This document shows positions 1 through 54,933 of a stretch of DNA of 64,000 bases, in pieces (the stretch's first letter is position 1; every line of letters starts with the position of its first letter). The DNA is taken from NCBI GenBank assembly GCA_965662895.1, contig CBFIJH010000005.1, positions 57,928-121,927 of the forward strand. The letters are read 5' to 3'. A program made the position numbers and the translations under genes. The notes below the pieces were generated by a model, which was not told the origin of the DNA, did not search any database, and worked only from the letters and a program-made list of their open reading frames with translations. Origin of the DNA: Candidatus Poseidoniaceae archaeon (lineage in GTDB: Archaea > Thermoplasmatota > Poseidoniia > Poseidoniales > Poseidoniaceae).

Positions 1-809
1 GTGGTTTGATGAAACCAAGTGCGGGTTCAGTCAGTCTGGCTGGAAAGAACATGACCCGATTGAAAGGCCAAGAATTGGTTGAACTTCGACAAAAGACCGT
101 ATCGTTCATTTTCCAAGAAGGAAACCTCCTTCCCGACTTGAACGCTCGGGACAACGTCGCTCAACCACTTCGCCATCAAGGCGTCCCCTCAAAGAAAGCA
201 CTCGCACAGGCTGATGCTATGTTGGAACGACTAGGAATGGCGCATCGGACACAAGCGCTTCCAGCTAAGCTCAGTGGTGGAGAGCAACAACGCGTTGCCA
301 TTGCTCGAGCACTCATCACTCGTCCTCGATTGATTCTTGCTGACGAGCCAACGGGTGCACTTGATCCTGTGACGAGCAGAGAAGTTCTTGCTTTGTTCAA
401 AGACTTGCACGAAAACGATGGCGTCTCGTTCCTGATTGTTACACACTCAAAAGAAGTCGCTTCTTTTGCAAACCGATCGCTTGAACTTCGAGATGGTCGC
501 TTTGTGGCCGAACATGGTGATTCCATCGACGTTGAAGATTTGAGCAAGGACCGTGAACTCATCATCGATGAGACAGGAACAGTAACACTGCCTCCAGATC
601 TTTTGGTCCGCCTTGGTGGAGCAGGACGATACACCGTCGGAAACGTGGCAAGCGGGTACCTTTCACTGCAAGGTGATTCGGTCGAAGCCATGGGCAAAAT
701 GGAACTTGCTCAGGTCTGTCCTGCCTGCAAGCATGACTATGTTGATAGCGATGAGCAAATGTGTCCATCCTGCGGCTCAAGTCGGCCCATGGTGGAAGTT
801 GAAGTATGA
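1..809 (+). CDS. ABC transporter ATP-binding protein, 5'-partial (MacB/LolD-like), with C-terminal zinc-ribbon extension
   Basis: ORF runs off the window start and no Walker A is visible. ABC signature LSGGEQQRVAIARAL, Walker B LILADEPTGALD, H-loop VTHS. Extra ~90-aa tail carrying CPACKH...CPSCGS (Cys4). Stop overlaps the next start (ATGA at 806-809). Confidence 0.8.
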   Translation, partial: GLMKPSAGSVSLAGKNMTRLKGQELVELRQKTVSFIFQEGNLLPDLNARDNVAQPLRHQGVPSKKALAQADAMLERLGMAHRTQALPAKLSGGEQQRVAIARALITRPRLILADEPTGALDPVTSREVLALFKDLHENDGVSFLIVTHSKEVASFANRSLELRDGRFVAEHGDSIDVEDLSKDRELIIDETGTVTLPPDLLVRLGGAGRYTVGNVASGYLSLQGDSVEAMGKMELAQVCPACKHDYVDSDEQMCPSCGSSRPMVEVEV

Positions 810-1093
810 AGCAACTCGTCTCATTTGTTAGTTATCTCGAGGGTTTCTCAGCCCTGTTTCTATTTGCAGTAGCGATGCCTGTCAAGTATATCGGTGGCGA
901 TCCATCACTGGTTTCACTCGTTGGCGCCATCCACGGAGGTCTTTTTGTTGCGTTCATTGGTTTGTTGTTCTTCGGTGTAGGACGTCAATGGAACCTGACT
1001 GCACTGATTCACGGATTCATCGCTGCCGTCGTTCCAGCAGGACCGTTTCTCTTTGATGGAATGCTCATCAGTGGAGAGTACGACCCCAAGTAA
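806..1093 (+). CDS. DUF3817-like small integral membrane protein
   Basis: 95 aa with 3 hydrophobic helices (LFLFAVAMPVKYIGG..., GGLFVAFIGLLFFGV, LIHGFIAAVVPAGPFLF). Start overlaps the ABC ATPase stop, suggesting translational coupling. Family assignment is from memory of DUF3817 architecture. Confidence 0.55.
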   Translation: MKQLVSFVSYLEGFSALFLFAVAMPVKYIGGDPSLVSLVGAIHGGLFVAFIGLLFFGVGRQWNLTALIHGFIAAVVPAGPFLFDGMLISGEYDPK

Positions 1094-1164
1094 TTTGATA
1101 TATAATCAGTTTTATTTAGTCAAGACTATAAGTAACGTGTTGTGTCGCTGGCTAACGTGATAAA

Positions 1165-1578
1165 ATGGACGCGAAAACTATCTTTCAACCGAAAATATGG
1201 TACATCATCTGTGGCGCTATAGCCCTCTTTGGTGGAATTGAAAACATGATGAACGCTGAAACTTGGGCTGAAAGCGCCTGGGGTAAGGACGGCGTAAACG
1301 ATCAAAGCAAAGCAATGGAGACCCTCTTCGGCCTCTTCATGTGTGGATTTGGGGTGATGGGTCTTGTTTGTGCCTTCGTGCTTGATGGTACAACTCAGGC
1401 CAAATTTGCGATGGCCAATGCAGGCGCAATCATGGCGTTCTTCCTCGCTATGTTTTTTGTTCTCCCAGAAACTGGCTACGAAATGCCAGGTGTTGCTTTC
1501 TTAGTACCACCATTCTTGTTCCTTGGTGGTCTTCTCGCTGCAGGATACTTGCACATGAACGACACGGAAATGGTTTGA
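1165..1578 (+). CDS. Small 4-TM membrane protein, MDAK-family paralog 1
   Basis: N-terminus MDAKTIFQPKIWY followed by hydrophobic helices. Stop TGA lies immediately before the next ATG at 1579. A TATA-like ttgatatataatc sits ~60 nt upstream. Confidence 0.6.
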   Translation: MDAKTIFQPKIWYIICGAIALFGGIENMMNAETWAESAWGKDGVNDQSKAMETLFGLFMCGFGVMGLVCAFVLDGTTQAKFAMANAGAIMAFFLAMFFVLPETGYEMPGVAFLVPPFLFLGGLLAAGYLHMNDTEMV

Positions 1579-1959
1579 ATGGATGCAAAGTCGATTCTTA
1601 ACACGAAAGTATGGCTAACAATCATTGGCGTTATGCATCTTCTCATGGGTGTCATTGTCAACTATATGGAAAATGGTAGTGAAGACAATCTTGCAGGATT
1701 TGGATTCTTTGCCATGATTAGTTTCTACCTACTTTATGTCGCATTTATGACCACAGGACAGGTACAAGCACGATTGGCAGTTATTTTCTGCGGACCAGTC
1801 GTTGTTTGGTTTATCGTTTGTATGGTTATGGATCTCAATCTCTTTGGGGCTCCGGTCGCATCTATGCCGGAAGCAGTTCTACCACTCGTTCTTTGGGGTA
1901 TGCCTGCTCTCTGCGGTATTCTCGATTGGAACATGGACGACACCGCAACTGAGGCATGA
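1579..1959 (+). CDS. Small membrane protein, MDAK-family paralog 2
   Basis: N-terminus MDAKSILNTKVWL. Same length class and same TM pattern as paralog 1. Confidence 0.6.
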   Translation: MDAKSILNTKVWLTIIGVMHLLMGVIVNYMENGSEDNLAGFGFFAMISFYLLYVAFMTTGQVQARLAVIFCGPVVVWFIVCMVMDLNLFGAPVASMPEAVLPLVLWGMPALCGILDWNMDDTATEA

Positions 1960-2432
1960 TGATGGATGCAAAGCGTATTTTTCAACCAAAAATATGGCTA
2001 CTCGTATTCGCTTTGGTCCATACTCTTGGGATGAGTGCTGATCTTCTACCGGTCCTAACGGATGACGAAGCTGCAGGTACACACTTAGGTAACACCGTCA
2101 ATGAATCGCTTGCCGATGATGAAAGTGCAATCGAGGCTTATCAAGGTGGCATGTCACAGGTGTATGGTATCGGATTGTCATGGACCATCATCATGGTTGG
2201 TGGTGCCTTCTGGACACGTGGGAAATCACAGGCCCAACTGAGCGTATTGTTCGGTGGTGGACTTTTTGTGACCGGCTTAACCTTGGGCATTATGGGTTCG
2301 ATGGTCGGTGACGGCTTCGACGCGTTTGCCTTTGTCATGACTACGCTCTTTGCGGCTCCGATCATCGCGAGTGGTGTTCTTCATCTTGAAGATGAGGCCG
2401 AAGAACCGTCCGCATCTCACGTTGATGCTTGA
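1956..2432 (+). CDS. Small membrane protein, MDAK-family paralog 3
   Basis: N-terminus MMMDAKRIFQPKIWL. ATGA overlap with the paralog 2 stop. Alternative starts at 1959 or 1962. Confidence 0.6.
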   Translation: MMMDAKRIFQPKIWLLVFALVHTLGMSADLLPVLTDDEAAGTHLGNTVNESLADDESAIEAYQGGMSQVYGIGLSWTIIMVGGAFWTRGKSQAQLSVLFGGGLFVTGLTLGIMGSMVGDGFDAFAFVMTTLFAAPIIASGVLHLEDEAEEPSASHVDA

Positions 2433-4808: not shown

Positions 4809-5882
4809 ATGAAACATCGGGTGCTGCTGGTTGGTCTCGTTGTTTTCTGCCTGGTTCAACCCATGGCCCATGCTGAAGATTCGTCCTACGAATGTACCGC
4901 AGGCGACTCGACCGAAGACCGAGTTGGTTGCCTCGACTCGGATGGAGATGGTTGGTCCGATCCAGATTCAAACTGGAACGAATCGATGGGTGCCGATGCG
5001 TTTCCAAACAATGCTTCTGAGCATCGAGATCTTGACGGAGACGGTCTAGGTGATGGCATCGATTCAGACATGGACGGCGATGGCTCCAACGATGATGTAG
5101 ATTTGTGGCCAGAAGATGCAGGCATTTGGTCAGATTCCGACGGAGATGGATACGCAGATCAAGGCTTGCATTCACTTTCTGACAATTGTCCATTCATCTA
5201 TGGAAAGAGCAAGATTCGTCTTATTGGGTGCTCCGACATTGATGGAGATTTCATGCCGGATGAATACGATGATGATGCAGACGGTGATGGAATTCGAAAT
5301 GAAATGGAACGTGCAGCATCCTCGGGAACAATCCTCTACGACCCCTACAATGCAGAATCAACCCCTCTCGATACGGACCGAGATACACTTCCCGATGTCC
5401 TCGATGATGACAACGATAACGATGGCTGGCCGGATGATGTCGAACTCGATCGTGGTTCTGGTATCTATGATGCTGATTCAACTCCGTTCAACATGTACAT
5501 GGGGGTGGAGACAGGATTCTTTTATCGCGGCGGTTTGAATGCAGACTCATTCACGAGCGAATACGATCCTGAGAGTTTCGAAATCTCTCTGTCTGCACTA
5601 AGTGAAATTGTGTTTGAGGAATTGGTGATACCTCTTCTTCTTGTTCCGATTTATTTTGCTGTCTTTTTCGCTCGACGTGGTGAATTCCGAAATTGTCTGA
5701 AGAAAATTGAGTCCGCTTCGACATCCAATGAACTCATTGAACTTGAGAAAATTGTCAATTCGATGGTAAAGGAAAAGAGAATCAAGGTTTATCATGGGCT
5801 TGTTTTGAGAAATGCATTGGAAGAAAAGGAATCCGAGTTTGGCTCTGAACCTCAATATGAAGCCAAATCAGAGGAAGAATAA
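4809..5882 (+). CDS. Cell-surface protein with thrombospondin-type-3-like acidic Ca-binding repeats and a C-terminal TM anchor
   Basis: Signal peptide MKHRVLLVGLVVFCLVQPMAHA. Repeated DSDGDGWSD, DLDGDGLGD and DSDMDGDGSNDD units. Single C-terminal helix LVIPLLLVPIYFAVFFA followed by an ~80-aa charged cytoplasmic tail. SD-like GAGG sits upstream. Confidence 0.7.
   Translation: MKHRVLLVGLVVFCLVQPMAHAEDSSYECTAGDSTEDRVGCLDSDGDGWSDPDSNWNESMGADAFPNNASEHRDLDGDGLGDGIDSDMDGDGSNDDVDLWPEDAGIWSDSDGDGYADQGLHSLSDNCPFIYGKSKIRLIGCSDIDGDFMPDEYDDDADGDGIRNEMERAASSGTILYDPYNAESTPLDTDRDTLPDVLDDDNDNDGWPDDVELDRGSGIYDADSTPFNMYMGVETGFFYRGGLNADSFTSEYDPESFEISLSALSEIVFEELVIPLLLVPIYFAVFFARRGEFRNCLKKIESASTSNELIELEKIVNSMVKEKRIKVYHGLVLRNALEEKESEFGSEPQYEAKSEEE
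4920..5450 (+). repeat. Intragenic tandem acidic D-x-D-x-D-G repeats (TSP3-like)
   Basis: Recurrent gatggagatgg / gacggtgatgg codon blocks. These also spawn spurious ORFs in the other frames. Confidence 0.55.
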
Positions 5883-10342: not shown

Positions 10343-11206
10343 ATGCGTCGTCGGGGTATTCACGAGGTTTTTCTCGGTTCATCGACGGATGCCCTTTTGA
10401 GACGTCTAGCGGTTAATGCTGCAATTGTTGGGTTCTTGCTCCATCTCTTGTGTTGTGTACTTTACGATGTAGGCGTTCTCAAAGAATCTGGAATCGAGAC
10501 GTTCGTTGACTCGTATCTTGATGCCTTGTACACACCGTTTTCAATTATTCTTGCTTACGAAGTGTACGAACTCATTCGAGCGATTCCGGAATCGTTCTCG
10601 AACTCCATTGGTAAGCAATTTGAAGTCGTTACGCTTCTTGTTGTTCGCGACATCTTCAAGAATTTGGCGGATCTTGGCGCATCCGAAGATGTCTCCATCG
10701 ACGCTGATGTTGCCTTTATTGCAATGGAAGCTGTTGCCTTCGTTGTGCTCTTCGGAACGGCGTTGTATTTCCGTTCAACAACCGCAACTTCGAAAACTCC
10801 CCGGCTTCAAGACGACTCTGTTCAAACATTTGTTCAGCAAAAGAAGCATCTCGCATGTGCACTGGTCGCTGTGTATGTCCTCGTTGCTTTGTATTCCTTT
10901 ACGACATGGTTGACAGGTGTCATTGATGGTGAAGCAGGTTTGAGCAGGACGGTGTTCTTCTCGGATTTCTTCACGTGGCTGATCGTTTCAGACATCGTAA
11001 TTTTGTTGGTCTCGTATCGGCACATTACCGATTTTCCTCAACTTGCTCGCAATACTGGATTTATTCTTTCGACCGTGATTATACGTGTTGGAATTGGAAT
11101 CCCTGGCTTTACTGGAGCCATTCTGTTCATTCTTTCTGCAGCACTTGCATCTTGCGTTCTCCGATTAAGCTTCCACTCTTCTCCCTTCGTCGAGTCAGAA
11201 GAATAA
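10343..11206 (+). CDS. Hypothetical polytopic membrane protein
   Basis: 287 aa with ~6 predicted helices. No recognisable motif. Confidence 0.55.
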   Translation: MRRRGIHEVFLGSSTDALLRRLAVNAAIVGFLLHLLCCVLYDVGVLKESGIETFVDSYLDALYTPFSIILAYEVYELIRAIPESFSNSIGKQFEVVTLLVVRDIFKNLADLGASEDVSIDADVAFIAMEAVAFVVLFGTALYFRSTTATSKTPRLQDDSVQTFVQQKKHLACALVAVYVLVALYSFTTWLTGVIDGEAGLSRTVFFSDFFTWLIVSDIVILLVSYRHITDFPQLARNTGFILSTVIIRVGIGIPGFTGAILFILSAALASCVLRLSFHSSPFVESEE

Positions 11207-11280: not shown

Positions 11281-14004
11281 ATGCTGAAGCAACGGACCGT
11301 TGTGTTAACACTCTTGTTGCTTCTTACCTTCGTTCCGTCCTATGCGACTGAAGGGACTGAAGATGAAATTGTTGAAAAGTTCGGTGTTGGATTCGATGAA
11401 GTAACCATTGCAGATTCCTCGGACTATCTCAACGATCCGCGAGATTTGGAATTCCATCCAGGTCGCGCCAATGAGTTGTGGATCGCCAATCGAGCGACAG
11501 ACAGCATTACCATCGTTGAAAACACGGGATTGTCGAATCAAACCTCTCAAAATCGAGCAGATTCAAACAGGAATCATTTCTTGGAAGAAGTGAGTGCGAT
11601 TTCCTTCGGCGCCTATCATCCTGAATTCGATTGGCAATGGGGTTCTGCCCAAGAAACTGGAAACACCTACTGCGGTCAAGCCCCTGCGAATTATTTCATG
11701 GGTCCGACTCTTTGGCCATCATCGTTGAATCATTTTGCTGTTGAGAACCAAAACAACGGCAATGGGCTCCTTGGTAGCCACATCGATATGAACCATGAAT
11801 CGCCATTCGGTGTTGGGATTGCACACGATTATGACAACGTTTACTGGTACAACGATGGCTACTACGGCGAACTGGTTCGATACGATTTCAAAGAAGATCA
11901 CGATACGGGCCAAGACGATCATTCCGATGCTGTCGTGCGTCGTTACACGGAAATTAGTCTCACACACTTCTACGGTATTCCAGGCCACATGGTGATGGAC
12001 AAATCGAATGGAATGCTTTACATCGCAGACGCTGGAGCAAACCGTGTTCTTTGGGTCAATACTGACGATACGACAACCACATCGACCAATATCATGGACG
12101 ATGCCTCGCGATTGGAACCGCTTGCAGAGTACTCAGAAATCACCGACGTTGAATGGGGGGTTCTTGCAACTGGACTCAACCTCCCATCAGGAATAGCACT
12201 CGCAGACGGCCAGCTCTTTGTCTCAGAGAACGGGAACGGCAAGATTGTCGCTTACGAACTGGCTTCCGATGGAAAGAGCGCTGTTGAACTTGACGAAATC
12301 CAGACGACTGCTACGTCCATCATGGGATTGGAAGTTGGACCAAATGGACATCTCTACTATGTTGATAATGGTCAAGATAAGGTCGTTCGAATCGACCCTT
12401 ACACCGATGAAGACGATGATGGTGTCGGCGATCAAGTCGACAATTGTCCGAGCATCGCAAATCCGTTGCAAGCCAACTTTGACAACGATTCAATGGGAGA
12501 TGTTTGCGATTCCGATGACGACAATGACTCGGTGCTGGATGTTGACGACCAATGCATCCTCGGCCAACTCGACTGGACGTCAACGATACTGAACGATCAT
12601 GATGGAGACGGATGTCTCGATGCGACGGAAGACTTGGATGATGACAACGATGGTGTTGCTGATCCCTCCGACCTATGCTCCACAGGTGACTTGGGATGGA
12701 CCTCATCACCCTCAACCGATTACGATGGGGATGGATGCCAGGATGCACTGGAGGATGTTGATGATGACAACGACAGAGTTTGCGATGCAAGTGATCTGAG
12801 CAGCTCTTGGGCTTGTACACCATCGACTGCGAACGTCGATCTCTGCCCTCAAAGCTCTCTCGGTTTCTTCTCAAACAATCAAAACGACGTTGATGGTGAC
12901 GGTTGTGAAGATGCCACTGAAGATACGGACGACGACAACGATGGTTTTGCTGATGACGTTGATGCTTGTCCATTGGATGCAGGAACAAGTTCGCTTGGTT
13001 TTGTTGTTGGTTGCAGCGATTACGATTCCGATGGGTACAGTGATTCCATCGATTTGTTCCCGACAGAGTCGACACAGTGGTTGGATTCAGATGGTGATGG
13101 ATACGGTGACAATCCAGATGGTTTCGAAGCAGACGCCTGCGCAAACGAATCAGGGCAGTCAACTGCGGATTCATTTGGATGTCCCGATGCGGACGGTGAC
13201 GGTTGGTCGAATCTCAACGATGCTTTCCCGAACGAAGTAACCCAACATTCTGATGAAGATGGTGATGGCTTTGGAGATGCCACGGACGGCTTTCAAGGGG
13301 ACGACTGTCTCGGTGTTCCTGGAACATCAACAAAGGACTTCTTTGGATGCTTGGACCCGGATGGTGACGGATGGTCGGATTTGAACGATGCCTTCCCTCA
13401 AGAACCAACACAACATACTGACGCTGATGGAGATGGTTACGGTGATAATGCAGAGGGAAATCTTCCAGATAGTTGCCCAGAACTGTACGGTCTTTCTTCC
13501 ATCGATCGGTATGGTTGTCCAGATAGCGATGGTGACGGGTGGGAGGATCGCTCCGATGCATACGTAAATGACGCTCGACTTTGGTCCGATAGAGATGGTG
13601 ATGGCTATGCCGGCCAACAAGGAACAAATCTTTCCGATGATTGTCCTGAGACGTATGGCACATCAATTCTTGATTTCCGAGGGTGCTTGGATTCTGATGG
13701 TGATGGCTGGTCCGATAAGACCGATGCGTATCCAAACGATGCGTCGAAGTATCTCGCTTCAGAAGAGGCACCAGAAGACAACGACTTCACGCTCCTAGGT
13801 CTTGGAATCGGAGTACTTGTTCTCGTGTTCCTCATGTTTGCTATCATGCGTAGGAAGACAACAGTAGAGCCAGAGTTTGGCTTCGCAGCCCCTCCAATTC
13901 CACAACCGCTTCCACGTGCACCGCCGCTTCCTCCAGAAGGCTTGCCAGCTGGTTGGACGATGGAGCAATGGATGGTCTATGGCGAGGATTATCAAAAACC
14001 GTAA
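11281..14004 (+). CDS. Large type-I cell-surface protein: NHL/SMP-30-like beta-propeller N-domain plus ~10 TSP3-like acidic Ca-binding repeats, a C-terminal TM anchor and a Pro-rich cytoplasmic tail
   Basis: Signal peptide MLKQRTVVLTLLLLLTFVPSYA. SD GAGGT 8 nt upstream. NHL-like blades: YIADAGANRVLWVN, LPSGIALADGQLFVSENGNGKIVAYEL, GPNGHLYYVDNGQDKVVRIDP. Repeats: C.D.DGDGWSD..DAFP.E.TQH.D.DGDGYGDN. TM helix LLGLGIGVLVLVFLMFAI followed by PPIPQPLPRAPPLPPEGLPAGW. Confidence 0.75.
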   Translation: MLKQRTVVLTLLLLLTFVPSYATEGTEDEIVEKFGVGFDEVTIADSSDYLNDPRDLEFHPGRANELWIANRATDSITIVENTGLSNQTSQNRADSNRNHFLEEVSAISFGAYHPEFDWQWGSAQETGNTYCGQAPANYFMGPTLWPSSLNHFAVENQNNGNGLLGSHIDMNHESPFGVGIAHDYDNVYWYNDGYYGELVRYDFKEDHDTGQDDHSDAVVRRYTEISLTHFYGIPGHMVMDKSNGMLYIADAGANRVLWVNTDDTTTTSTNIMDDASRLEPLAEYSEITDVEWGVLATGLNLPSGIALADGQLFVSENGNGKIVAYELASDGKSAVELDEIQTTATSIMGLEVGPNGHLYYVDNGQDKVVRIDPYTDEDDDGVGDQVDNCPSIANPLQANFDNDSMGDVCDSDDDNDSVLDVDDQCILGQLDWTSTILNDHDGDGCLDATEDLDDDNDGVADPSDLCSTGDLGWTSSPSTDYDGDGCQDALEDVDDDNDRVCDASDLSSSWACTPSTANVDLCPQSSLGFFSNNQNDVDGDGCEDATEDTDDDNDGFADDVDACPLDAGTSSLGFVVGCSDYDSDGYSDSIDLFPTESTQWLDSDGDGYGDNPDGFEADACANESGQSTADSFGCPDADGDGWSNLNDAFPNEVTQHSDEDGDGFGDATDGFQGDDCLGVPGTSTKDFFGCLDPDGDGWSDLNDAFPQEPTQHTDADGDGYGDNAEGNLPDSCPELYGLSSIDRYGCPDSDGDGWEDRSDAYVNDARLWSDRDGDGYAGQQGTNLSDDCPETYGTSILDFRGCLDSDGDGWSDKTDAYPNDASKYLASEEAPEDNDFTLLGLGIGVLVLVFLMFAIMRRKTTVEPEFGFAAPPIPQPLPRAPPLPPEGLPAGWTMEQWMVYGEDYQKP
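12418..13780 (+). repeat. Intragenic tandem TSP3-like repeats (~35-45-aa units)
   Basis: Repeated gatggtgatgg / gacggtgacgg blocks. These create long spurious His/Arg-rich antisense ORFs. Confidence 0.6.
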
Positions 14005-29471: not shown

Positions 29472-32400
29472 ATGGAAGAACGGCCAGTATGGAAAGGGCG
29501 ATTTTTGGCACTGTGTTTCACCGTGTTTTTTGCAACCCCCATACTTGCACCGTTTGCCTCTGCAGACGGTATGACAACCTGTGATGGCGTACCCGGTTTC
29601 AGTGATTGCGATGATTATGATTCAAACGATGATGGAACACCCTTTCAACAAGATTGGATTCGTGGAACGTACGATTTCGATTTGCAAGATACTTCAACAA
29701 TCCAAATGACATTGAGTTGGGCGGTGCGTGAATTCGATCGCAGCAAAGTCGGTCTCGATGATTCGACGACGAGTACTGCTCTCGCAAATGATGGATTGGA
29801 TGAGGATGATGGGATTCCAGCTGATATGATTCGAACCTACTTCGCCTACGAACCCAGCCCAGGAGCTGGTACCGTTGGTGACCAAATGTTGGACGACGTT
29901 CAAGATACAATCAGCGAACTCCTCTCGAGTGGATTCGGAACCGTTACAGCAATCAACACACAATACGATGGAATTTATTCCGAGGGAGGAAACACCGAGA
30001 TTTGTACGACCGATGCAAACGAAGACTCGGTCTACGATTCTGGCTCGGGCGTTACGGAGAACAACGTCTTCGACCCGCCCATTTGCTTCTCGACCATTGC
30101 CGAGATTCAGTTATCAACAAGCACATTCAATTTACTTGAAAATACGGACCTTGAACTTGAACGTGCGTATCAAGGCCTGCTTATTATGGGTTCAGAATTG
30201 ACAACGCAATTCAACGTCTTTGCAGAACCCGGTCACGTCTCAACCTTCTCGATTCATCCTCCGAATTATGCCACGGTCGTCGGTGTCGATGGAAACGGTT
30301 CCATCGTTCCTAATCCTTGTACAGTGGCGACCTGCGCAGGTCAGTGGACAGTGGAAAATCTGAACGCAGGTACAGATGCGTCTCGTGCCGAACAAACGGT
30401 CAGTTTGACCATGGGATATCGAAACACCTCGACAACGTCCATTGTCGAACTCGATCCGAACAAAGAGGCCGTATCGCTCCATCTCAAGGTGGATTTATTT
30501 GACGAACAAGAGGTTCAAATCGACTTCGTTGCAGGTATCAACTATCTTGATACGACAACAATGGACAATTGGGGCATTTCTCTCGTAGAATTATCCGAAT
30601 TAGCAACCATTCCTCAAATTACCTCCGATGGAATTCGTTTAGCGTATGAAAACGGAATCGCTCCTCTCGACGATTTCACCGATCAATTCCCAGTTGCATC
30701 GATTGGCGATGCGTTTTCAGCATCTATCCCAGGATCGCCTGACATTCAGATGGGACAATTATCATGGGTAAGTGATTCAGTCGCTGAGGGAATTGATGGG
30801 CCGGCTGGAGGATTGAATTACAGTCATTCCGTTGGCTGTTCTGAAACTGTGACACCACCGAACACAATCTCCTACTGTATCGAAGGACCCAGTGCTATGG
30901 GTTACGACCATCCAATCTATCTCCGTTCAACGAGCAACACGTTTGATCTTGGGTTGCTGGACCTCATTCAAGAGAATATACCGGATTCTGAATTCGAACT
31001 GGATGGTAAAACATACAACACGAAGGATTATTTTGAACTTATTACGAACGAAGACCTTCGAAGGCTGATGGATGCTGGTTTGTCGATTGAAACGGTCCTT
31101 GATACAGATTTCCTCGAAACCATGATTCCGTCTGATCTTCCACCGTCAAAAATTACACTTGAACTGATTCTACCGAGTTGGATTGTAACCGCCGATGGTT
31201 CTGACCGCATCATCCTTGAACACTCAGCATCAGGTGAAACCAGGAATGAAATCTCAATTGCAGGACCTTCTCCTTACACCTATAATCATCCAATCCTCAA
31301 TGAAGACGGTGAAACCATTTGTTTGCAAACGCAGAAGACCTGTGTTTCAACATCCCTATCCATTGATTTCGAGACCTTCGACATCAACGAATGGACGAAA
31401 TCTGTTTCCATTGAGTTTGGCCTTGAAGCCACTGCAGTTGTTCACCGAATCGCTGTTCCACAGGGGTATTACGACGTGAATGACACAACTGTCCGCATGG
31501 AGGTCATTCCAAGCGATTTAATCCGGTTGATTGGGGATATTATGAGTCGTGATGAGGAAAAAGCAATCTCCATCGAACGATGCCTTGAGTCAAACATAAA
31601 AAATTCCAATGCCTGTCCTGAGGAAAGTAGGCTTCAATTCAATCTTACATCCGATGGTTTGATGCAATTTGGAACCGATGCTGGAGAACTTCTCACACAC
31701 CAGATTCACACGCAGGTTGAAAAACTAGAAACGAGTGACGAAGGGCCTGAATTCTCGGAGGTTGACATCAGTGATTTTGTCATTGAAACGAGCCTTGCAG
31801 GACTTGGAAGTCCAGGACAAACCGTTTCTGATGAAGTGGGCCTAAGCGTGAGTCTCAAGATTCCAAAAGTTCGATTTACACTGGCTGTATCGAGCCCATG
31901 GGGCGATTTACTGAGTGGCGATCCTGACGCAATAACGCTCTCACTTCTTACCGAGGACATCAGTGGTGCTTTCCGTTCACCACTGCTTCAACCCATGGTC
32001 ATGATGGTCGATGAAATGTCGTCGATGATGACAGCAAGCCTTGTTTCATCAGAGGGAATTACATTCCCGCCGCTCGAGCAGGAAGCATTGATTGTTGAAA
32101 CAGGTTCTTGGGATACGACAATTCACGAAGATACGGAATTTGATTTGACTGGACCGGTCAGTTTCACGTTACCAAAAGGCATCATCGTCAAAGAGGGAAC
32201 ATCTACGCAAGGAAACATGATCATCACCGAAGATGATGAAGGGCGTCAAGTCATTACGTACACAATTCCGCCGGACGGTCTCGATGATGAAGTAACACTT
32301 CGGCTTCAAGTAACGTGGATGTATCTGCTTGGTCAATTTTGGGCTTATCCGGCTGTTGTTGTTATTCTGCTCATCCTTCTGATACGGCGTCGCCGCAAGA

Positions 32401-32579
32401 AGAAAAAGAAAAAGCGAGCTGCTAGAGAAGCAAAGAATTCACTGTACAAGGCCCAGAAGATGGGCTTATCGGAGTCCGACTTCGCTCAAATGGCTGGATC
32501 GGTTGACCGTCAAGTCGGAGGATACGATGAGGGAATCAATCCATTTGAAGCGATGCAACGTGAACCGCCTCAACCTTAG
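29472..32579 (+). CDS. Large secreted cell-surface protein (1035 aa) with a C-terminal TM anchor and polybasic tail
   Basis: Signal peptide ...FATPILAPFASADG. No recognisable repeat family. C-terminal helix YPAVVVILLILLI followed by RRRRKKKKKKR. Confidence 0.65.
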   Translation: MEERPVWKGRFLALCFTVFFATPILAPFASADGMTTCDGVPGFSDCDDYDSNDDGTPFQQDWIRGTYDFDLQDTSTIQMTLSWAVREFDRSKVGLDDSTTSTALANDGLDEDDGIPADMIRTYFAYEPSPGAGTVGDQMLDDVQDTISELLSSGFGTVTAINTQYDGIYSEGGNTEICTTDANEDSVYDSGSGVTENNVFDPPICFSTIAEIQLSTSTFNLLENTDLELERAYQGLLIMGSELTTQFNVFAEPGHVSTFSIHPPNYATVVGVDGNGSIVPNPCTVATCAGQWTVENLNAGTDASRAEQTVSLTMGYRNTSTTSIVELDPNKEAVSLHLKVDLFDEQEVQIDFVAGINYLDTTTMDNWGISLVELSELATIPQITSDGIRLAYENGIAPLDDFTDQFPVASIGDAFSASIPGSPDIQMGQLSWVSDSVAEGIDGPAGGLNYSHSVGCSETVTPPNTISYCIEGPSAMGYDHPIYLRSTSNTFDLGLLDLIQENIPDSEFELDGKTYNTKDYFELITNEDLRRLMDAGLSIETVLDTDFLETMIPSDLPPSKITLELILPSWIVTADGSDRIILEHSASGETRNEISIAGPSPYTYNHPILNEDGETICLQTQKTCVSTSLSIDFETFDINEWTKSVSIEFGLEATAVVHRIAVPQGYYDVNDTTVRMEVIPSDLIRLIGDIMSRDEEKAISIERCLESNIKNSNACPEESRLQFNLTSDGLMQFGTDAGELLTHQIHTQVEKLETSDEGPEFSEVDISDFVIETSLAGLGSPGQTVSDEVGLSVSLKIPKVRFTLAVSSPWGDLLSGDPDAITLSLLTEDISGAFRSPLLQPMVMMVDEMSSMMTASLVSSEGITFPPLEQEALIVETGSWDTTIHEDTEFDLTGPVSFTLPKGIIVKEGTSTQGNMIITEDDEGRQVITYTIPPDGLDDEVTLRLQVTWMYLLGQFWAYPAVVVILLILLIRRRRKKKKKKRAAREAKNSLYKAQKMGLSESDFAQMAGSVDRQVGGYDEGINPFEAMQREPPQP

Positions 32580-36835: not shown

Positions 36836-37069
36836 TCAGTATTCCACCGCAATTAGCGTTCGCGTGTCCCGAATTCCTTCAATGGTTCTGAACTCTTTCA
36901 TGAGCAGTGCGGTGAGATTTTTTGCTGTGTTGCTGCTCACATGAGCGAGAAGATCGTACTCTCCATACAAGGCGTGGACTTCTTTGACATCAGCATGGGA
37001 GGTTATAGCGAGATAGACATCACGCTCATGGGACGGTTCGGTCTTGACAAGGATGAATGCTTCTGGCAC
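36836..37069 (-). CDS. Stand-alone Lrp/AsnC C-terminal (RAM) domain protein, tandem paralog
   Basis: 77 aa. ILVKTEPSHERDVYLAI...GEYDLLAHVSSNT...IEGIRDTRTLIAVEY. Confidence 0.7.
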   Translation of the reverse strand: MPEAFILVKTEPSHERDVYLAITSHADVKEVHALYGEYDLLAHVSSNTAKNLTALLMKEFRTIEGIRDTRTLIAVEY

Positions 37070-37167
37070 AATGTCCGCTTGAGCAGAAGGGTCTTATCGC
37101 TTTGGTTTCGTTTTTCGGTGAACATGCAAAGGGTGCTTTCAAATGGTATCGCTTTGGATTATACAAT

Positions 37168-40100
37168 ATGGAGAGGCAAAAGCGGTTCTTTGCCCTTGGT
37201 TTGTTGCTGCTTCTCCTGATGATGTCCATGGCGCCCATGGTTCAATCCTTTCACGATTCGCAGGGGAAGCCAACTGCGGTTTCAGGACGCGCTACGACCA
37301 CATGGTCCGGTACGGTGACATTGACGAGCGATTATTTTGTGAACGTTCAAGATGAACTGCTGATTACGTCGTGCACAAGTGTTGTTCTGTCTCCAGGGAT
37401 CCGAATTTACATCGATGGACGTTTGACCGTTCAGGGAACTCCTACGTGTCCGATTGTTCTGTCAAGTTCTTCGTCCACAGGCGATCATGAAGGAATACAA
37501 TTCAATTCCTCGTCGTTTGGTCGTGGTAGTACAGTGAACCACCTTCACATTGAGGATGCGATTTATGGGATTACCATGTATGGCTCAAATCCGATTTTGA
37601 ACAATGTGACCATCTTCAATCCGGACCGTGTTGGCATCGATATGTTTGGAAGCTCAAGCCCAGTCATTCGAGACTTGCATGTGGAACAGGCTGGTCGCTC
37701 CGTTGGGTTCCAGAATGATTGGCGTTACGGCATTGGATTGTCCGTTGGCGACGGATCAACACCGATTGTTCAAGGAGCATATTTCACCGACCACCAATTG
37801 CGAGGTCTCAACTTGTGGGGCGCATCTGGAGGTATTTATCGGGACATTGTCATGGACAACATATCGGGCTCCGTTCTTGGAGAGGTGGCGGGAGTATGGG
37901 TCGAAGACAGCGTTCCACTGTTCGAAAATTTAACCATCGATAAAAGCGACACGGGCATCATCGTTCGACACATTGACGATTCGGGGTATACGCGTGGTGT
38001 TTTTAGGGACGTCGACATATCGAACAGTATGTTTCGTGGCGTTTATTTGGACAAAAACAACCACACGAATTACACCAATTACGAAACAGCAGATTTCACC
38101 AATCTTACGGTCAGAGGAACTGGTTCATCTGGGGCAACGTCCCCCGGAATTGCGCTTGCAGCTATCGACATTAACGCAACAGGCGCATGGCTTGAGAATG
38201 TCCTTGTAGATGACGCATCGTCTGTCGGCATCCGAATGTTCTTTGTTGATTCAACGACCACACTCCGAAATGTGACCATACGTGACGCTGGTGAAGTTGG
38301 ACAAGGTGCACATTCAGCGGGATTAAGCATCCAAACCTCTTACTTTGCTGCACATGTTGAAGATCTTGAAATCAGTGGCTCCCCCGGGCCAGGTGTTCAT
38401 TCGTCCAGTGGTGGCTCTCTTCAGGGGTCCGACTGGAATCTTCACAACAACTCAGAACATGGCTTGTTCATCGATTCTGCAACTGTTGTTGTTGACGGAA
38501 TCTCGACGATGAAAAATGGATATTCGGGCGTTCATGTGTTTGACTCGCGTTATGTGAGCATTTCAAATCTAACCTCTGTCAACGATGGTGATCTTGGTTC
38601 GGACGCTATGGAACAAGCGGGTCTTTCGTACCAAAAATCCAACGATTTAGAAACAAACTCAGGAGATGTTGTTTGTAGGAATTGTCACGTTGAATCCTCG
38701 CAAGGCCATGGTGTCTACGTTCGTGATTCCGTTGACCTTTGGCTGCACAACCTTTCGATATCGGACATCGACCCAACACTTCCAGCAATGTACGTCGATA
38801 ACGGAGGCTTGACGCTTGGCACACAAGGTGGACGCATCAATCTCTTCAATTCACAGATCGAGCATGAATCAACAACGCAACATGCCTTGTACATTCAACA
38901 AGCAGCGGGTCATATCGATGGACTATCATTGATTGGAAATCACAGTGGAATCTATTGGGATGCAAACCATAACGGGAATTTCCCATCGACATTAAGCAAT
39001 ACTGAATTTGTAGGCAGTGAATGTCTCAAACTTGTGAATCATCCCGACCTTGGAGGTTATGGAAATACGATCGGTTCGGATTGTGAAGGACGGATATGGG
39101 TCGAAAATTCCGATGTGAATTTCTCCAATTTGGTTGATGTAAGTGGTACACACATTTTGGACCTTGATGCAGCATCAACCATGCATTTGCATCAACCCAG
39201 TAACATTGATCTCACGATTGCAAACATTCCATCAGGCGCATCCATCGACGTTGCTTGGGATGTTACCGTGTGGGTTGTAAACAATCTCTCCAACGGCATT
39301 CCAAATGCCTATGCCAACGTGAGTTTCACACAATTTGAACCATCTGTGTCGGAGTTTACCAACGATATTGGTGTTGTACAATTGATCGATTTCATTGGAC
39401 AACGTTGGACGAATTCTGGTGCATCGGCCATGAATGATGTTGCTGTTGAATGCGGTTATGATAGCGAGAGCAACACTACGACGGTAAGTTTGGATGGTGA
39501 CAAAGTGATGTATTGTGTTCTCGAATTGGACAACCAACCCCCATTTTTGAACTGGACTTCACCGATGGACGGGGATGTGTTCCCTTCACAGGGACAGGTT
39601 TTGTTTGATGCTCAAGAGTCCTGGGATTTGGACGACGATCCTCTCACACTCACGTGGACTTCCTCCCTTGATGGCGTCATCTCATCAACACAAAGCACGG
39701 CCCCGTTTACGGTCAACGATGGCGTATCTGGGATTACGCTTAGTGATGGTATTCATGATATAACGCTGGACGTTTGTGACAATGCTGGACATTGTGTATC
39801 AGAAACACGTACAATCGAATTAACGAATCTCGCTCCGGAACTCAACGTGTCCTTTGAACCGGGCCTGACCCAGTGGAATGAACTCATTATGCCTCAAACG
39901 GGAACGGTCACCATCAATACGACAGGGACATTTGACCCTGAAGGTGATGATTTTGCTTGTACAATTTCCTTTGGAGGGTACAACCGACAAGGTACTGGAT
40001 GGGGCAATCAATATGTCTGTCCAGAGTTGTTGACGTACACCTTTGATCATTATTCGGACGACCCACCAGCATCGTTCTTCTTGAACGTCGTTGCATTTGA

Positions 40101-41877
40101 TGAAGTAGGGAATTCAGATACCTACACCGTTGAAGTCAAGTTGTACAATGAGATGCCAACCGCTGCTTTCACGCTCGAACGTAATGGAACAGCGAGTGAG
40201 GATGTGATTTTCTTCAATGGAAGCAGTTCAGCAGACCCAGAAAACAATCCAATTTCGTTTGAATGGTGGTCCAATGTGGATGGAACGCTCATGGTTGGTC
40301 AAGGTATTGAGAACATTTCTTGGTACGGACATCTCTCTCGTGGTGTTCATCAAATTGAGTTGCGAATCACCGACGATCGTATGGATCATGGAGGTCAAAT
40401 GTCGGTTGTCTCTCAATTGATTACCGTCGACAATTCTGCACCACGAGCTGTCATTGAAGAATTGGCTCTGTTCGATGACCTTGACTCGTCCGTTTTGATT
40501 CCGTTCAGTGCAAATGGTAGTGGCGATTTCGATTCAGGATGTTTTACATTCCCAAGTGAGGGGACCTGGCACTGTGCAGAGAACGAGCCTGCAGCTGGCT
40601 CCGAATTCCTGCAAATCGATTGGTCGAGCGACATCGATGGACGATTGACACCAGAAGATGAGGATTGGTTGACCTTTGAAACGCGTCTCTCCGCAGGCAC
40701 GCACCAGATTACACTCACGCTCAGCGATGGCATCAATCCCAACGTTTCCGTTTCGACAACACTTGAGGTTGCTGAATCAGCCCCTGTCTTGGTGTTGGAT
40801 TCTCCGGTAAATGGTAGCCAATTCGCCTCGAGTGATTTGATTGTTATCGATGCACGAAACAGCGTTGATTACGATGAGGATGACTTTACACTCACCTTGC
40901 GAAGTTACGAGGATTCATCTTCGACGTATCTCCCCATTCTGTCCGGTGTTTCAACATCGGTTGTTCATGAAATTCAACTCGATGCTGGATTAAGAGATTT
41001 GCAAATCGAATTACTGGATGCGACTGGAAAATCTCGCGTTGAATCGCTCGAACTACTCATTCTCCCCAGCGACCCAGAGGCCGTGATTGTATCGCCTGCT
41101 AATCTTGAATCGTTCGATCCAGGAGTAACCATCGTCTTCGAAGGTTCCTCCAGTGATGCTGATCAAGATCTCATTGTTCGAGAATGGCGATTGCACCAAC
41201 CAGGAGTCCAAACAAGCATTCTGAGTACCCAGTCAACATTCTCCCAGGTCTTTGTTCCCGGTTCGCATCATGTTTCGTTGTACGTTCAAGATGCCCGTGG
41301 AGCTTCCTCGGAGCAGCACATCAACTTCACAGTGCGATCAAGCCTTCCTGAATTGGTTCAGACCAGTTTGGAACTGTCACAGACCGAGTTCATCTCAGAC
41401 GAGCAAGTTACACTCGATGTAGCGGTCCAGCTGATTGATGCGGATGGAACAACCAACGATGTGCGCGCCGATATCGTCCACAACATTCAGACGTGGACAT
41501 TCAATCTCAGCGATGATGATGGCGATGGAATTTGGACTGGCTCGATTGAATTCCAGCCTTCGGGTGCAGGACAACCAAGTTTCAAGGTCATTGCAACCGA
41601 TGGAGAAGGCGATTCTGCCAGTGTTGATGTTCTTTACACGCCGCTGAAAGTTGTTGACGCCGAGGGTGAAGGATTTATGTCAACGGGTGTCCTTCTCGGT
41701 GCAGTTTCGATTGTTGTTCTCGTGGCCCTGCTTATCACGCTCCAGCGTCGAAGGCAAGCAGCAGAGGAAATGAAAATCATTGATTCATGGGGCGTCTTTG
41801 GTGATGGAGCAGTCGAGGATGATGCATCTGAACAAGAAGTGAATGAGGACGAAAAGTTGGATTGGGAGAACGTCTGA
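37168..41877 (+). CDS. Giant type-I surface protein: parallel beta-helix (PbH1) domain plus ~6 PKD/Ig-like domains and a C-terminal TM anchor
   Basis: Start at MERQKRFFALGLLLLLLMMSMAPMVQS (signal peptide). PbH1-like repeats NPILNNVTIFNPDRVGIDMFGSS, GIGLSVGDGSTPIVQGAYF. PKD-like modules marked by LTWTSSLDGV, FEWWSNVDGT, IDWSSDIDGR. TM helix GVLLGAVSIVVLVALLI followed by an acidic tail. Confidence 0.75.
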   Translation: MERQKRFFALGLLLLLLMMSMAPMVQSFHDSQGKPTAVSGRATTTWSGTVTLTSDYFVNVQDELLITSCTSVVLSPGIRIYIDGRLTVQGTPTCPIVLSSSSSTGDHEGIQFNSSSFGRGSTVNHLHIEDAIYGITMYGSNPILNNVTIFNPDRVGIDMFGSSSPVIRDLHVEQAGRSVGFQNDWRYGIGLSVGDGSTPIVQGAYFTDHQLRGLNLWGASGGIYRDIVMDNISGSVLGEVAGVWVEDSVPLFENLTIDKSDTGIIVRHIDDSGYTRGVFRDVDISNSMFRGVYLDKNNHTNYTNYETADFTNLTVRGTGSSGATSPGIALAAIDINATGAWLENVLVDDASSVGIRMFFVDSTTTLRNVTIRDAGEVGQGAHSAGLSIQTSYFAAHVEDLEISGSPGPGVHSSSGGSLQGSDWNLHNNSEHGLFIDSATVVVDGISTMKNGYSGVHVFDSRYVSISNLTSVNDGDLGSDAMEQAGLSYQKSNDLETNSGDVVCRNCHVESSQGHGVYVRDSVDLWLHNLSISDIDPTLPAMYVDNGGLTLGTQGGRINLFNSQIEHESTTQHALYIQQAAGHIDGLSLIGNHSGIYWDANHNGNFPSTLSNTEFVGSECLKLVNHPDLGGYGNTIGSDCEGRIWVENSDVNFSNLVDVSGTHILDLDAASTMHLHQPSNIDLTIANIPSGASIDVAWDVTVWVVNNLSNGIPNAYANVSFTQFEPSVSEFTNDIGVVQLIDFIGQRWTNSGASAMNDVAVECGYDSESNTTTVSLDGDKVMYCVLELDNQPPFLNWTSPMDGDVFPSQGQVLFDAQESWDLDDDPLTLTWTSSLDGVISSTQSTAPFTVNDGVSGITLSDGIHDITLDVCDNAGHCVSETRTIELTNLAPELNVSFEPGLTQWNELIMPQTGTVTINTTGTFDPEGDDFACTISFGGYNRQGTGWGNQYVCPELLTYTFDHYSDDPPASFFLNVVAFDEVGNSDTYTVEVKLYNEMPTAAFTLERNGTASEDVIFFNGSSSADPENNPISFEWWSNVDGTLMVGQGIENISWYGHLSRGVHQIELRITDDRMDHGGQMSVVSQLITVDNSAPRAVIEELALFDDLDSSVLIPFSANGSGDFDSGCFTFPSEGTWHCAENEPAAGSEFLQIDWSSDIDGRLTPEDEDWLTFETRLSAGTHQITLTLSDGINPNVSVSTTLEVAESAPVLVLDSPVNGSQFASSDLIVIDARNSVDYDEDDFTLTLRSYEDSSSTYLPILSGVSTSVVHEIQLDAGLRDLQIELLDATGKSRVESLELLILPSDPEAVIVSPANLESFDPGVTIVFEGSSSDADQDLIVREWRLHQPGVQTSILSTQSTFSQVFVPGSHHVSLYVQDARGASSEQHINFTVRSSLPELVQTSLELSQTEFISDEQVTLDVAVQLIDADGTTNDVRADIVHNIQTWTFNLSDDDGDGIWTGSIEFQPSGAGQPSFKVIATDGEGDSASVDVLYTPLKVVDAEGEGFMSTGVLLGAVSIVVLVALLITLQRRRQAAEEMKIIDSWGVFGDGAVEDDASEQEVNEDEKLDWENV

Positions 41878-41900
41878 GGCCACTTTATTTTGTAGGCCAT

Positions 41901-41916
41901 AGTATAATATATAACA
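41901..41916 (+). promoter_or_regulatory. TATA-like element (tagtataatatataac) about -25 from the ATG at 41934
   Basis: AT-rich box in the 56-bp gap between two large genes, with the right spacing for a leaderless archaeal promoter. Confidence 0.35.
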
Positions 41917-41933
41917 GAACTCCAGTGCGACGC

Positions 41934-54417: not shown

Positions 54418-54933
54418 TTGTGGATTATTCGGATTATGACTGGCGACTTCGATGTAGGCGTGGCTGCTGCGGTCACCAACGATTCCGGCATCCTACTGGT
54501 CAAAGAATCCAAGGGCCCCTACGCCGGGTTCTGGGGCTTGCCAAAAGGATACGTCGAGCCGAACGAATCGATCGAATCAGCCGTACTACGGGAACTCAAA
54601 GAGGAAACGCACCTCGACGGGAAAATCTCAGGATTCCTTGGCTTAAGAACGACCAAGACAAACAAAGGCGTTGGTTTGTTTCTCTGCTACAAAATCGAAC
54701 CAACGAGCACGGAAATCCGACCACAACAGGATGAGATATCCGATGTGAAGTTTTTCAATCTTGAATCCTTTGACCAACTCGAATGGGTTTCTGCAGCAAT
54801 GCGAGGGTTTGCTGAAGTAGCACTCAAAGACACATCGCTCCCCCTTGTCGACCTGAGCCATGAATCAAAGCGCCCGTATCATCTCGTATTCAGCGATGGG
54901 CGTGCAACACTTTTGGATGAGGTGATTCAATGA
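54418..54933 (+). CDS. NUDIX hydrolase
   Basis: Nudix box GLPKGYVEPNESIESAVLRELKEETHL. Confidence 0.7.
   Translation: MWIIRIMTGDFDVGVAAAVTNDSGILLVKESKGPYAGFWGLPKGYVEPNESIESAVLRELKEETHLDGKISGFLGLRTTKTNKGVGLFLCYKIEPTSTEIRPQQDEISDVKFFNLESFDQLEWVSAAMRGFAEVALKDTSLPLVDLSHESKRPYHLVFSDGRATLLDEVIQ

Follow-up and report, generated by a model that had tools for sequence, protein, structure and literature searches.

A tandem array of three four-helix membrane protein genes in a Poseidoniaceae archaeon is genetically separable from the adjacent FtsX-type ABC unit

The window analysed here is the whole stretch of 64,000 nucleotides from Candidatus Poseidoniaceae archaeon. Its first 2,432 nucleotides hold, all on the plus strand, the end of an ATP-binding cassette (ABC) ATPase gene, a DUF3817 gene, and three adjacent genes for small membrane proteins with four transmembrane (TM) helices, which we call the MDAK genes. 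Few uncultured microbes of the surface ocean are as abundant as the Marine Group II (MGII) archaea, and a large part of their membrane proteins lacks annotation. The first of the three genes, MDAK1 (1165..1578), encodes 137 amino acids, belongs to a “leader” subfamily (B) and carries a conserved extracellular AExWAESAWG loop. MDAK2 (1579..1959) encodes 126 amino acids, belongs to the short-loop subfamily A and has a histidine in the middle of TM1. MDAK3 (1962..2432) encodes 156 amino acids; its extracellular loop 1 is long and acidic, and it falls into the “tail” subfamily D. All three are defined by their open reading frames (ORFs), complemented by an AlphaFold2 (AF2) model for the first two and by orthologues. 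The proteins open with MDAKTIFQPKIW (MDAK1), MDAKSILNTKVW (MDAK2) and MDAKRIFQPKIW (MDAK3).

The junctions between the genes are very tight. The stop codon of MDAK1 (1576-1578) abuts the start of MDAK2 at 1579, and that of MDAK2 (1957-1959) is overlapped by in-frame ATG codons of MDAK3 at 1956 and 1959. Another in-frame start, at 1962, is 2 nt past this stop. We favour it because a GAGG (1951-1954) lies seven nucleotides before it and because the orthologues P0103 and P0110 begin with MDAK; use of the ATG at 1956 would give a protein of 158 amino acids. MDAK1 and MDAK2 are in one reading frame, parted by the single TGA at 1576-1578, and read-through of this codon would give a fused eight-TM protein with a compatible topology. 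Apparent natural fusions of MDAK proteins were considered as evidence for a complex and discarded, since the one in locus L044 stems from a run of X at an assembly gap and two others (P0154 and P0172) look like frameshifts.

Pairwise BLASTP comparisons of the three proteins give 24-31% identity (E 5e-7 for MDAK1/MDAK2, 4e-9 for MDAK1/MDAK3, and 3e-6 for the third pair), and a single family profile picks up all of them. Judged by these comparisons, their paralogy is above chance, and the ORFs are as described in an earlier, sequence-only reading of this DNA, which had proposed three adjacent paralogous genes. The orthologues of MDAK1 are 60-92% identical to it, and the available source names point to Poseidoniales. 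MDAK3 is missing from several close relatives, which have only genes of types B and A. The ratio of nonsynonymous to synonymous substitution rates (dN/dS) relative to close orthologues is 0.11-0.135 for MDAK1, 0.036 for MDAK2, and 0.066-0.075 for MDAK3, at dS of about 0.5-0.7. The MDAK genes are real and under purifying selection. That they are chance or decaying ORFs might be suggested by database labels no better than “hypothetical protein” or “uncharacterized membrane protein”, but the substitution ratios, the relatives at 58 species-level loci, the confident AF2 models, and the conservation of homologues across domains of life refute this idea and leave it next to no probability.

The MDAK genes are preceded by a spacer of 71 nt (1094..1164, plus strand), read from the sequence as AT-rich. 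It has T-runs directly after the stop codon of DUF3817, a TATA-like box (ACTATAAG, recognised by eye) about 33-40 nt 5′ of the MDAK1 ATG, and a GTGAT element, resembling a Shine-Dalgarno sequence, 4 nt 5′ of this ATG. The spacer is 62-76 nt long, with never an overlap, in 20 out of 20 species loci with DUF3817 immediately upstream, which suggests that the MDAK genes form a separate transcription unit. In loci with unrelated upstream genes, too, the first MDAK gene is preceded at similar positions by an ATTATAT-like box (about 35-45 nt away) and by a GTGAT directly in front of its start. This recurrence suggests that the spacer carries a putative promoter of the array's own. The whole row of genes, from the ATPase to MDAK3, had been read as one translationally coupled array. 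The overlap between the ATPase and DUF3817 and the tight MDAK junctions agree with this, but the spacer splits DUF3817 from MDAK1, and the row is not a single unbroken coupled block.

The genes on the other side of the spacer form a system of their own. The window opens with the 3′ part of an ABC ATPase gene of the MacB/LolD/FtsE type (1..809), whose start lies upstream of the window and whose stop codon is at 807-809. The Pfam domain ABC_tran matches the truncated protein with an E-value of 1.9e-20 (74 bits) and the full-length protein with 123 bits, and the C-terminus has a zinc ribbon, CxxC...CxxC (Zn_ribbon_3, E 1.3e-5). The top NCBIfam matches are LolD, FtsE, and MacB (158, 156, and 154 bits). 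They do not reach the equivalog cut-offs of 308, 265, and 966, respectively, and because the query is truncated at the 5′ end, these scores indicate similarity at the level of the family only. The next gene (806..1093) encodes a small membrane protein of 95 amino acids that is above the curated cut-offs of the DUF3817 profiles PF12823 (E 1.8e-17, 64.3 bits for a cut-off of 27) and TIGR03954 (E 8.8e-19, 68.1 bits for a cut-off of 33.25). Its dN/dS is 0.067. Its ATG lies inside the ATGA that contains the stop codon of the ATPase, and the two frames abut or overlap in every locus with both genes. Since its start overlaps the ATPase stop, DUF3817 is probably the final gene of the ABC unit. A literature search on DUF3817 returned passing mentions only.

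The sequence-only reading had described this ATPase as lacking an adjacent FtsX-type permease in the window. The missing gene is just off the 5′ edge of the window. A permease of at least 771 amino acids, with an FtsX domain (E 2.4e-13) and pentapeptide repeats, is encoded on the Logan contig L001, which comes from the same species (5 mismatches in 6,000 nt relative to the window). Its gene ends 3 nt 5′ of the start of the ATPase gene, whose complete product has 326 amino acids. The ATPase is not an orphan, because this permease is encoded directly upstream. Longer contigs (L008 1622-7936; L012 4282-9933) contain the full five-gene unit: a TetR-type regulator, an ABC ATPase of 248 amino acids, the permease, the zinc-ribbon ATPase of 326 amino acids, and DUF3817. 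The permease in L008 has 1,205 amino acids with the domain order FtsX, pentapeptide repeats, FtsX. The zinc-ribbon ATPase is 78-98% identical among Poseidoniaceae loci. Hence, the ATPase and DUF3817 of the window are the tail of a complete and highly conserved FtsX-type (type VII) ABC unit: the window ATPase has an ABC_tran domain and an FtsX permease encoded alongside, the two features that mark such a system. The unit resembles the MacB, FtsEX, and LolCDE-like systems in the best matches of its ATPase and in the FtsX-domain permease next door. It differs from them in that it combines two unlike ATPases, of which one carries a zinc ribbon, with a single permease whose two FtsX domains enclose the pentapeptide repeats, and in that it ends with a DUF3817 gene. 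These differences concern the neighbouring unit and not the MDAK genes. One paper lists an ftsX-like permease among the most transcribed genes of MGIIa (PMC9723583), a gene that might, but need not, be the permease beside the window. This very conserved unit may be a more tractable system than the MDAK genes.

To place the array in its genomic context, we sorted 58 species-level loci (GTDB species representatives) by what precedes the first MDAK gene. The contig was too short to judge the upstream context in 5 of them, leaving 53 informative loci. DUF3817 is immediately upstream in 20, and in 5 others the ABC/DUF3817 genes are within 3 kb with an opposite-strand Cupin_7 gene in between. A Rieske oxygenase gene is immediately upstream in 3 loci, 15 show 4 kb or more of upstream sequence free of ABC/DUF3817, and 10 have no adjacent DUF3817 in the less than 4 kb of upstream sequence that is present. 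DUF3817 is thus not adjacent in 28 of the 53, some of which are assigned by name to Thalassarchaeaceae or to Marine Group III (MGIII). Elsewhere, the gene that precedes the array is, among others, an spt5/NGN gene, purH, a gene of the histone deacetylase type, or one for a beta-CASP RNase. In some Poseidoniaceae, a pair of MDAK genes sits in housekeeping surroundings, between an spt5/NGN-domain gene and rpl1-rpl10 (L054 8949-13637; also L055, L066, and L067). In another lineage, the array follows a gene for the alpha subunit of a Rieske/ring-hydroxylating oxygenase (L005 8868-11619; also L030, L044, and L045), and these arrays are followed by a four-TM gene of 127 amino acids with a weak BphX-like match (E 0.05). 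An ABC ATPase near the MGIII arrays was considered as a relative of the unit and set aside, being of the DrrA/ABC-2 type and on the opposite strand, so unrelated. L054 also has an ORF of 233 amino acids, multi-pass and with an acidic central loop, between its leader-type and A-type MDAK genes (10441-11139). This ORF has neither a Pfam match nor detectable homology to MDAK proteins, and a gap of similar size (about 0.7 kb) is found at L046, L052, L053, L056, and L067.

These contexts bear on the suggestion of the sequence-only reading that the MDAK proteins are a membrane complex or substrate-binding module associated with the ABC ATPase. Worked out further, the MDAK and DUF3817 proteins would be accessory membrane subunits of the FtsX-type machine upstream, perhaps anchoring or modulating its extracytoplasmic pentapeptide-repeat domain. 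The MDAK genes are indeed on the same strand and directly 3′ of ATPase-DUF3817 in 20 of the 53 informative loci, and close to them in the 5 with the intervening cupin gene; the adjacency holds even where the MDAK genes are only 25-35% identical, and the length of the spacer is constant. However, the syntenic loci are conserved well beyond these genes, since most have the Cupin_7 gene 3′ of the array and often the Rieske gene too. The wider neighbourhood is collinear, so the adjacency of ATPase-DUF3817 and MDAK carries no special weight, and collinearity within Poseidoniaceae explains the linkage. The cupin gene that intervenes in 5 loci is on the opposite strand, DUF3817 is not adjacent in more than half of the informative loci, and the bacterial homologues described below have neither an FtsX-type ABC unit nor DUF3817 nearby. 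Finally, at the syntenic position the ATPase is far more conserved (78-98% identity) than the first MDAK gene, which ranges from 25% to 89% identity and switches subfamily, while the subfamily content and copy number of the arrays vary among close relatives. The MDAK array is genetically separable from the ABC unit. A role as accessory subunits is, in our view, distinctly unlikely, and nothing was found in support of a substrate-binding module. The synteny with ABC/DUF3817 is limited to certain lineages: it holds for part of the archaeal loci, is not seen in others, and is absent near the bacterial and eukaryote-like homologues examined.

We searched 1.84 billion representative proteins exhaustively with a profile and obtained only 101 clusters (at 50% identity) with E <= 0.001, so the family is small. 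The species loci in GTDB are from MGII (Poseidoniaceae and Thalassarchaeaceae) or MGIII archaea in 57 out of 58 cases, the exception being on a contig binned as a Rhodobiaceae bacterium. Full-length distant members come, by source name, from marine Myxococcales/Deltaproteobacteria, Ilumatobacteraceae/Acidimicrobiaceae, Actinomycetota, metagenome-assembled genomes (MAGs) of Rubrivirga, and one dinoflagellate transcript. A further member lies on a gene-poor contig beside a eukaryote-type aspartyl protease. The family is probably present in a eukaryote. The bacterial and eukaryote-like homologues are single genes with unrelated neighbours, and no FtsX-type ABC unit or DUF3817 was found near those examined. 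A gene for an Rce1-like/CPBP intramembrane protease adjoins the homologue in two unrelated bacterial lineages, on an Acidimicrobiia-like contig (L069 4854-6429) and in a Deltaproteobacteria/Myxococcales MAG (L072 5109-6423). Four other bacterial or eukaryote-like contexts lack such a gene, and so do the surroundings of all archaeal arrays. The viral contigs of IMG/VR contain no relatives of MDAK, and a viral origin of the family was rejected on these grounds.

Clustering at 45% identity separates the MDAK proteins into subfamilies of three kinds: the “leader” types B, C, F, G, and J, with a conserved AExxAxxxWG extracellular loop; the short-loop type A, which is the most widespread (47 loci); and the “tail” types D, E, and H, with a long acidic loop. 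Tandem arrays of these paralogues are conserved in MGII and MGIII archaea. The species loci have one (16 loci), two (30), three (9), or four (3) copies, arranged as B-A-D (the window and L032), B-A, B-D, B alone, C-A, G-A-F-H, or F-I-A-E. Across MGIIa, MGIIb, and MGIII, the order is kept as leader, short-loop, and, optionally, acidic-loop gene, and the genes abut or overlap. The composition of the array differs even between close relatives.

Such a turnover of copies and subfamilies at a conserved locus might reveal polymorphic protective or “immunity-like” membrane proteins, acting against a membrane-targeting toxin or a virus, or else partners of CPBP/Rce1-type proteases. The extracellular loop 1 is also the most variable region of the proteins, as expected from this idea, and the CPBP genes next to homologues in two unrelated bacterial lineages are a weak lead in the same direction. 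Yet purifying selection on the genes is strong (dN/dS 0.04-0.13), we noticed no toxin, secretion, or mobile-element genes near the arrays, and the lack of relatives in IMG/VR is matched by the lack of hits in PHROGs. The protease gene is absent from the archaeal arrays and from the four other contexts, and some lineages carry the MDAK genes inside the housekeeping cluster from spt5 to rpl1/rpl10. We regard a protective function as very improbable.

We searched for known families by scanning single sequences and a set of 44 members against Pfam, NCBIfam, and PHROGs, and by a profile search of the PDB sequences. Nothing rose above noise in any of the four. The best sub-threshold value for any MDAK protein of the window is with AmiS_UreI (E 0.0018), and no family matched more than 3 of the 44 members. 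Erg28 matched 2 of the 44 (best E 6.5e-4), which we judged not reproducible. The ABC-transporter permease profiles ABC2_membrane_3 and ABC2_membrane_5 were far under their cut-offs (E 0.02-0.26) and matched at most 3 of the 44. Foldseek returned no match at E <= 0.001, and fold searches yield only generic four-helix bundles. The family is thus absent from the curated libraries searched and its predicted fold is generic, in agreement with the initial impression that these proteins belong to no described family.

Several proteins resemble the MDAK family in size and number of helices. Among them are the BphX-like/DUF4345-type proteins, one of which is encoded directly after the Rieske-linked arrays, but the profiles are not homologous: hhalign gives a probability of 0.1% when the family alignment is compared with the neighbouring BphX-like genes, and no MDAK member matches PF06139. 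Homology to DUF3817, to a protein of 356 amino acids encoded upstream in MGIII, and to the inserted ORF of 233 amino acids was likewise rejected (hhalign probabilities of at most 1.3%). The models recall the eukaryotic tetraspans (CD9/Tspan15, MS4A/Fc-epsilon-RI beta/CD20, claudins, and sarcospan) in general fold only, with a sequence identity of at most 14%. Neither the large Cys-rich EC2 loop of tetraspanins nor their CCG motif is present in the MDAK proteins. This resemblance is generic because soluble and de novo designed four-helix bundles score equally well.

The AF2 models of MDAK1 (pLDDT, the predicted local distance difference test, of 90.6; pTM, the predicted template modelling score, of 0.81) and MDAK2 (pLDDT 89.5, pTM 0.82) show four TM helices in the former, with a short N-terminal turn and a short loop helix, and four long helices with a short N-terminal turn in the latter. 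Positively charged residues (lysine plus arginine) average 4.8 on the inside and 0.6 on the outside, and by this count 43 out of 44 members have both termini in the cytoplasm (N-in/C-in), including all three proteins of the window. The conserved columns are at both membrane interfaces: K10, W12, A35, W39, G40, E52, G75, Q/R78, A79, K/R80, G104, Y105, S126, G127, L129, and H130. Among these, the motif G-x-x-Q/R-A-K/R forms the turn between TM2 and TM3, and S-G-x-L-H is at the end of TM4. No charged residue is conserved in the cores of the TM helices; small residues abound there, and charges are confined to the helix ends. Of the 44 members, 18 have a histidine halfway along TM1, among them MDAK2 (residue 20, about 1636-1638) and MDAK3 (residue 20, about 2019-2021) but not MDAK1. 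A second histidine closes TM4 in 25 of the 44.

These features allow us to weigh a further possibility, namely that the paralogues oligomerise and, as a small channel or a secondary transporter, move some ion or small solute that matters in surface seawater. The idea is one of analogy, with the Fluc/CrcB and small multidrug resistance (SMR) pairs and with the MS4A- and Orai-like channels (about 120-150 amino acids, four TM), which function as dimers or oligomers. SMR pairs such as EbrAB and YkkCD, and the CrcB/Fluc pairs, are hetero-oligomers of four-TM proteins of about 105-130 amino acids encoded by tandem, tightly coupled paralogous genes, and the MDAK genes recall them in size, build, and arrangement. 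The occurrence of a stand-alone gene across unrelated marine planktonic lineages would suit a self-sufficient function, and the histidine within TM1 of 18 members also counts in favour. Against this, the TM cores lack conserved charged or polar residues, including the conserved membrane-embedded Glu. No Pfam match to SMR (Multi_Drug_Res), CRCB, or any other transporter family is above noise, and the structural matches are generic. Moreover, the subunits of the paired SMR and CrcB/Fluc proteins are opposite in topology, whereas the MDAK paralogues are all N-in and therefore parallel. We consider a channel or transporter unlikely.

The interpretation that we tentatively prefer, and to which we give slightly less than an even chance, is that the MDAK array encodes a tetraspan-like membrane module that stands on its own and is probably hetero-oligomeric. 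The region 1165-2432 holds, on this view, a self-contained and tightly coupled unit of three genes, which encode diverged paralogues from an undescribed family of four-TM proteins of about 125-160 amino acids. It would be transcribed from its own putative promoter in the 71-nt spacer, and the tight coupling of the genes would result in roughly equal amounts of the three subunits. These may then sit next to one another in parallel orientation and form a tetraspan-like hetero-oligomer in the membrane. Such a complex could be a non-enzymatic scaffold or adaptor, exposing variable extracellular loops and a conserved cytoplasmic face, and would be neither a transporter subunit nor the substrate-binding module of an ABC system.

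We favour independence from the ABC unit because the permease is found upstream, the spacer is kept in 20 out of 20 loci, DUF3817 is non-adjacent in 28 out of 53, the homologues elsewhere are single genes, and the conservation of the ATPase contrasts with that of the MDAK genes. The hetero-oligomer is suggested by the conserved order of subfamilies in abutting or overlapping genes, by the shared orientation of the proteins, and by their small-residue-rich TM helices with charges at the ends only. An enzyme or a known transporter is disfavoured because there is no family match in Pfam, NCBIfam, PHROGs, or the PDB sequences. Some observations point the other way. Close relatives have only B-A or only B-D, and 16 out of 58 loci have one MDAK gene, mostly of the leader type (some of these contigs being truncated), so that no fixed heterotrimer is required. 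The bacterial homologues are single genes, for which a monomer or homo-oligomer may suffice. The promoter call is a by-eye reading of the sequence, and the scaffold role is argued from the absence of visible catalytic or pore-lining residues, which is weak evidence. Lastly, the ABC/DUF3817 neighbourhood persists in loci where the first paralogue is only about 30-35% identical (L042, L043, L048, and L049), and this could reflect a functional link rather than plain collinearity.

A larger claim would be that the MDAK proteins make up a new family of tetraspan-like organisers of prokaryotic membranes that spans domains of life, single-copy in marine bacteria and possibly protists and expanded into ordered hetero-oligomeric arrays in MGII and MGIII, or else that they were recruited in Poseidoniaceae as hitherto unrecognised accessory subunits of a highly expressed FtsX-type mechanotransmission ABC machine. 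We see only a small chance for it. What the analysis provides is the definition of a family of membrane proteins that are compact, well folded, and strongly conserved, with its subfamilies, topology, motifs, and cross-domain distribution, and the removal of a misleading tie between the MDAK genes and an ABC ATPase taken for an “orphan”. This is of modest practical value; the family lends itself well to multimer modelling, metaproteomics, metatranscriptomics, and heterologous expression.

The rest of the window is consistent with a Poseidoniales chromosome and includes genes for an aldehyde:ferredoxin oxidoreductase, an S15 peptidase, glycosyltransferases, and UvrC. No tRNA gene and no Rfam family at its gathering score was found in the whole 64 kb (1-64000). 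Four large ORFs have no Pfam match at E <= 1e-5: 11281-14004 (907 amino acids), 29472-32579 (1,035), 54930-56420 (496), and 57853-60399 (848). The gene at 4809-5882 (plus strand) encodes a protein of 357 amino acids, with no significant Pfam match, that is rich in DxDxDG-type Asp repeats resembling the calcium-binding thrombospondin-type-3-like repeats and has a hydrophobic segment near its C-terminus. Two adjacent and slightly overlapping ORFs at 37057-44195 (plus strand), one of 1,606 amino acids with beta-helix and PKD domains and the other of 777 amino acids with a match to LDL-receptor class A, probably encode cell-surface proteins.

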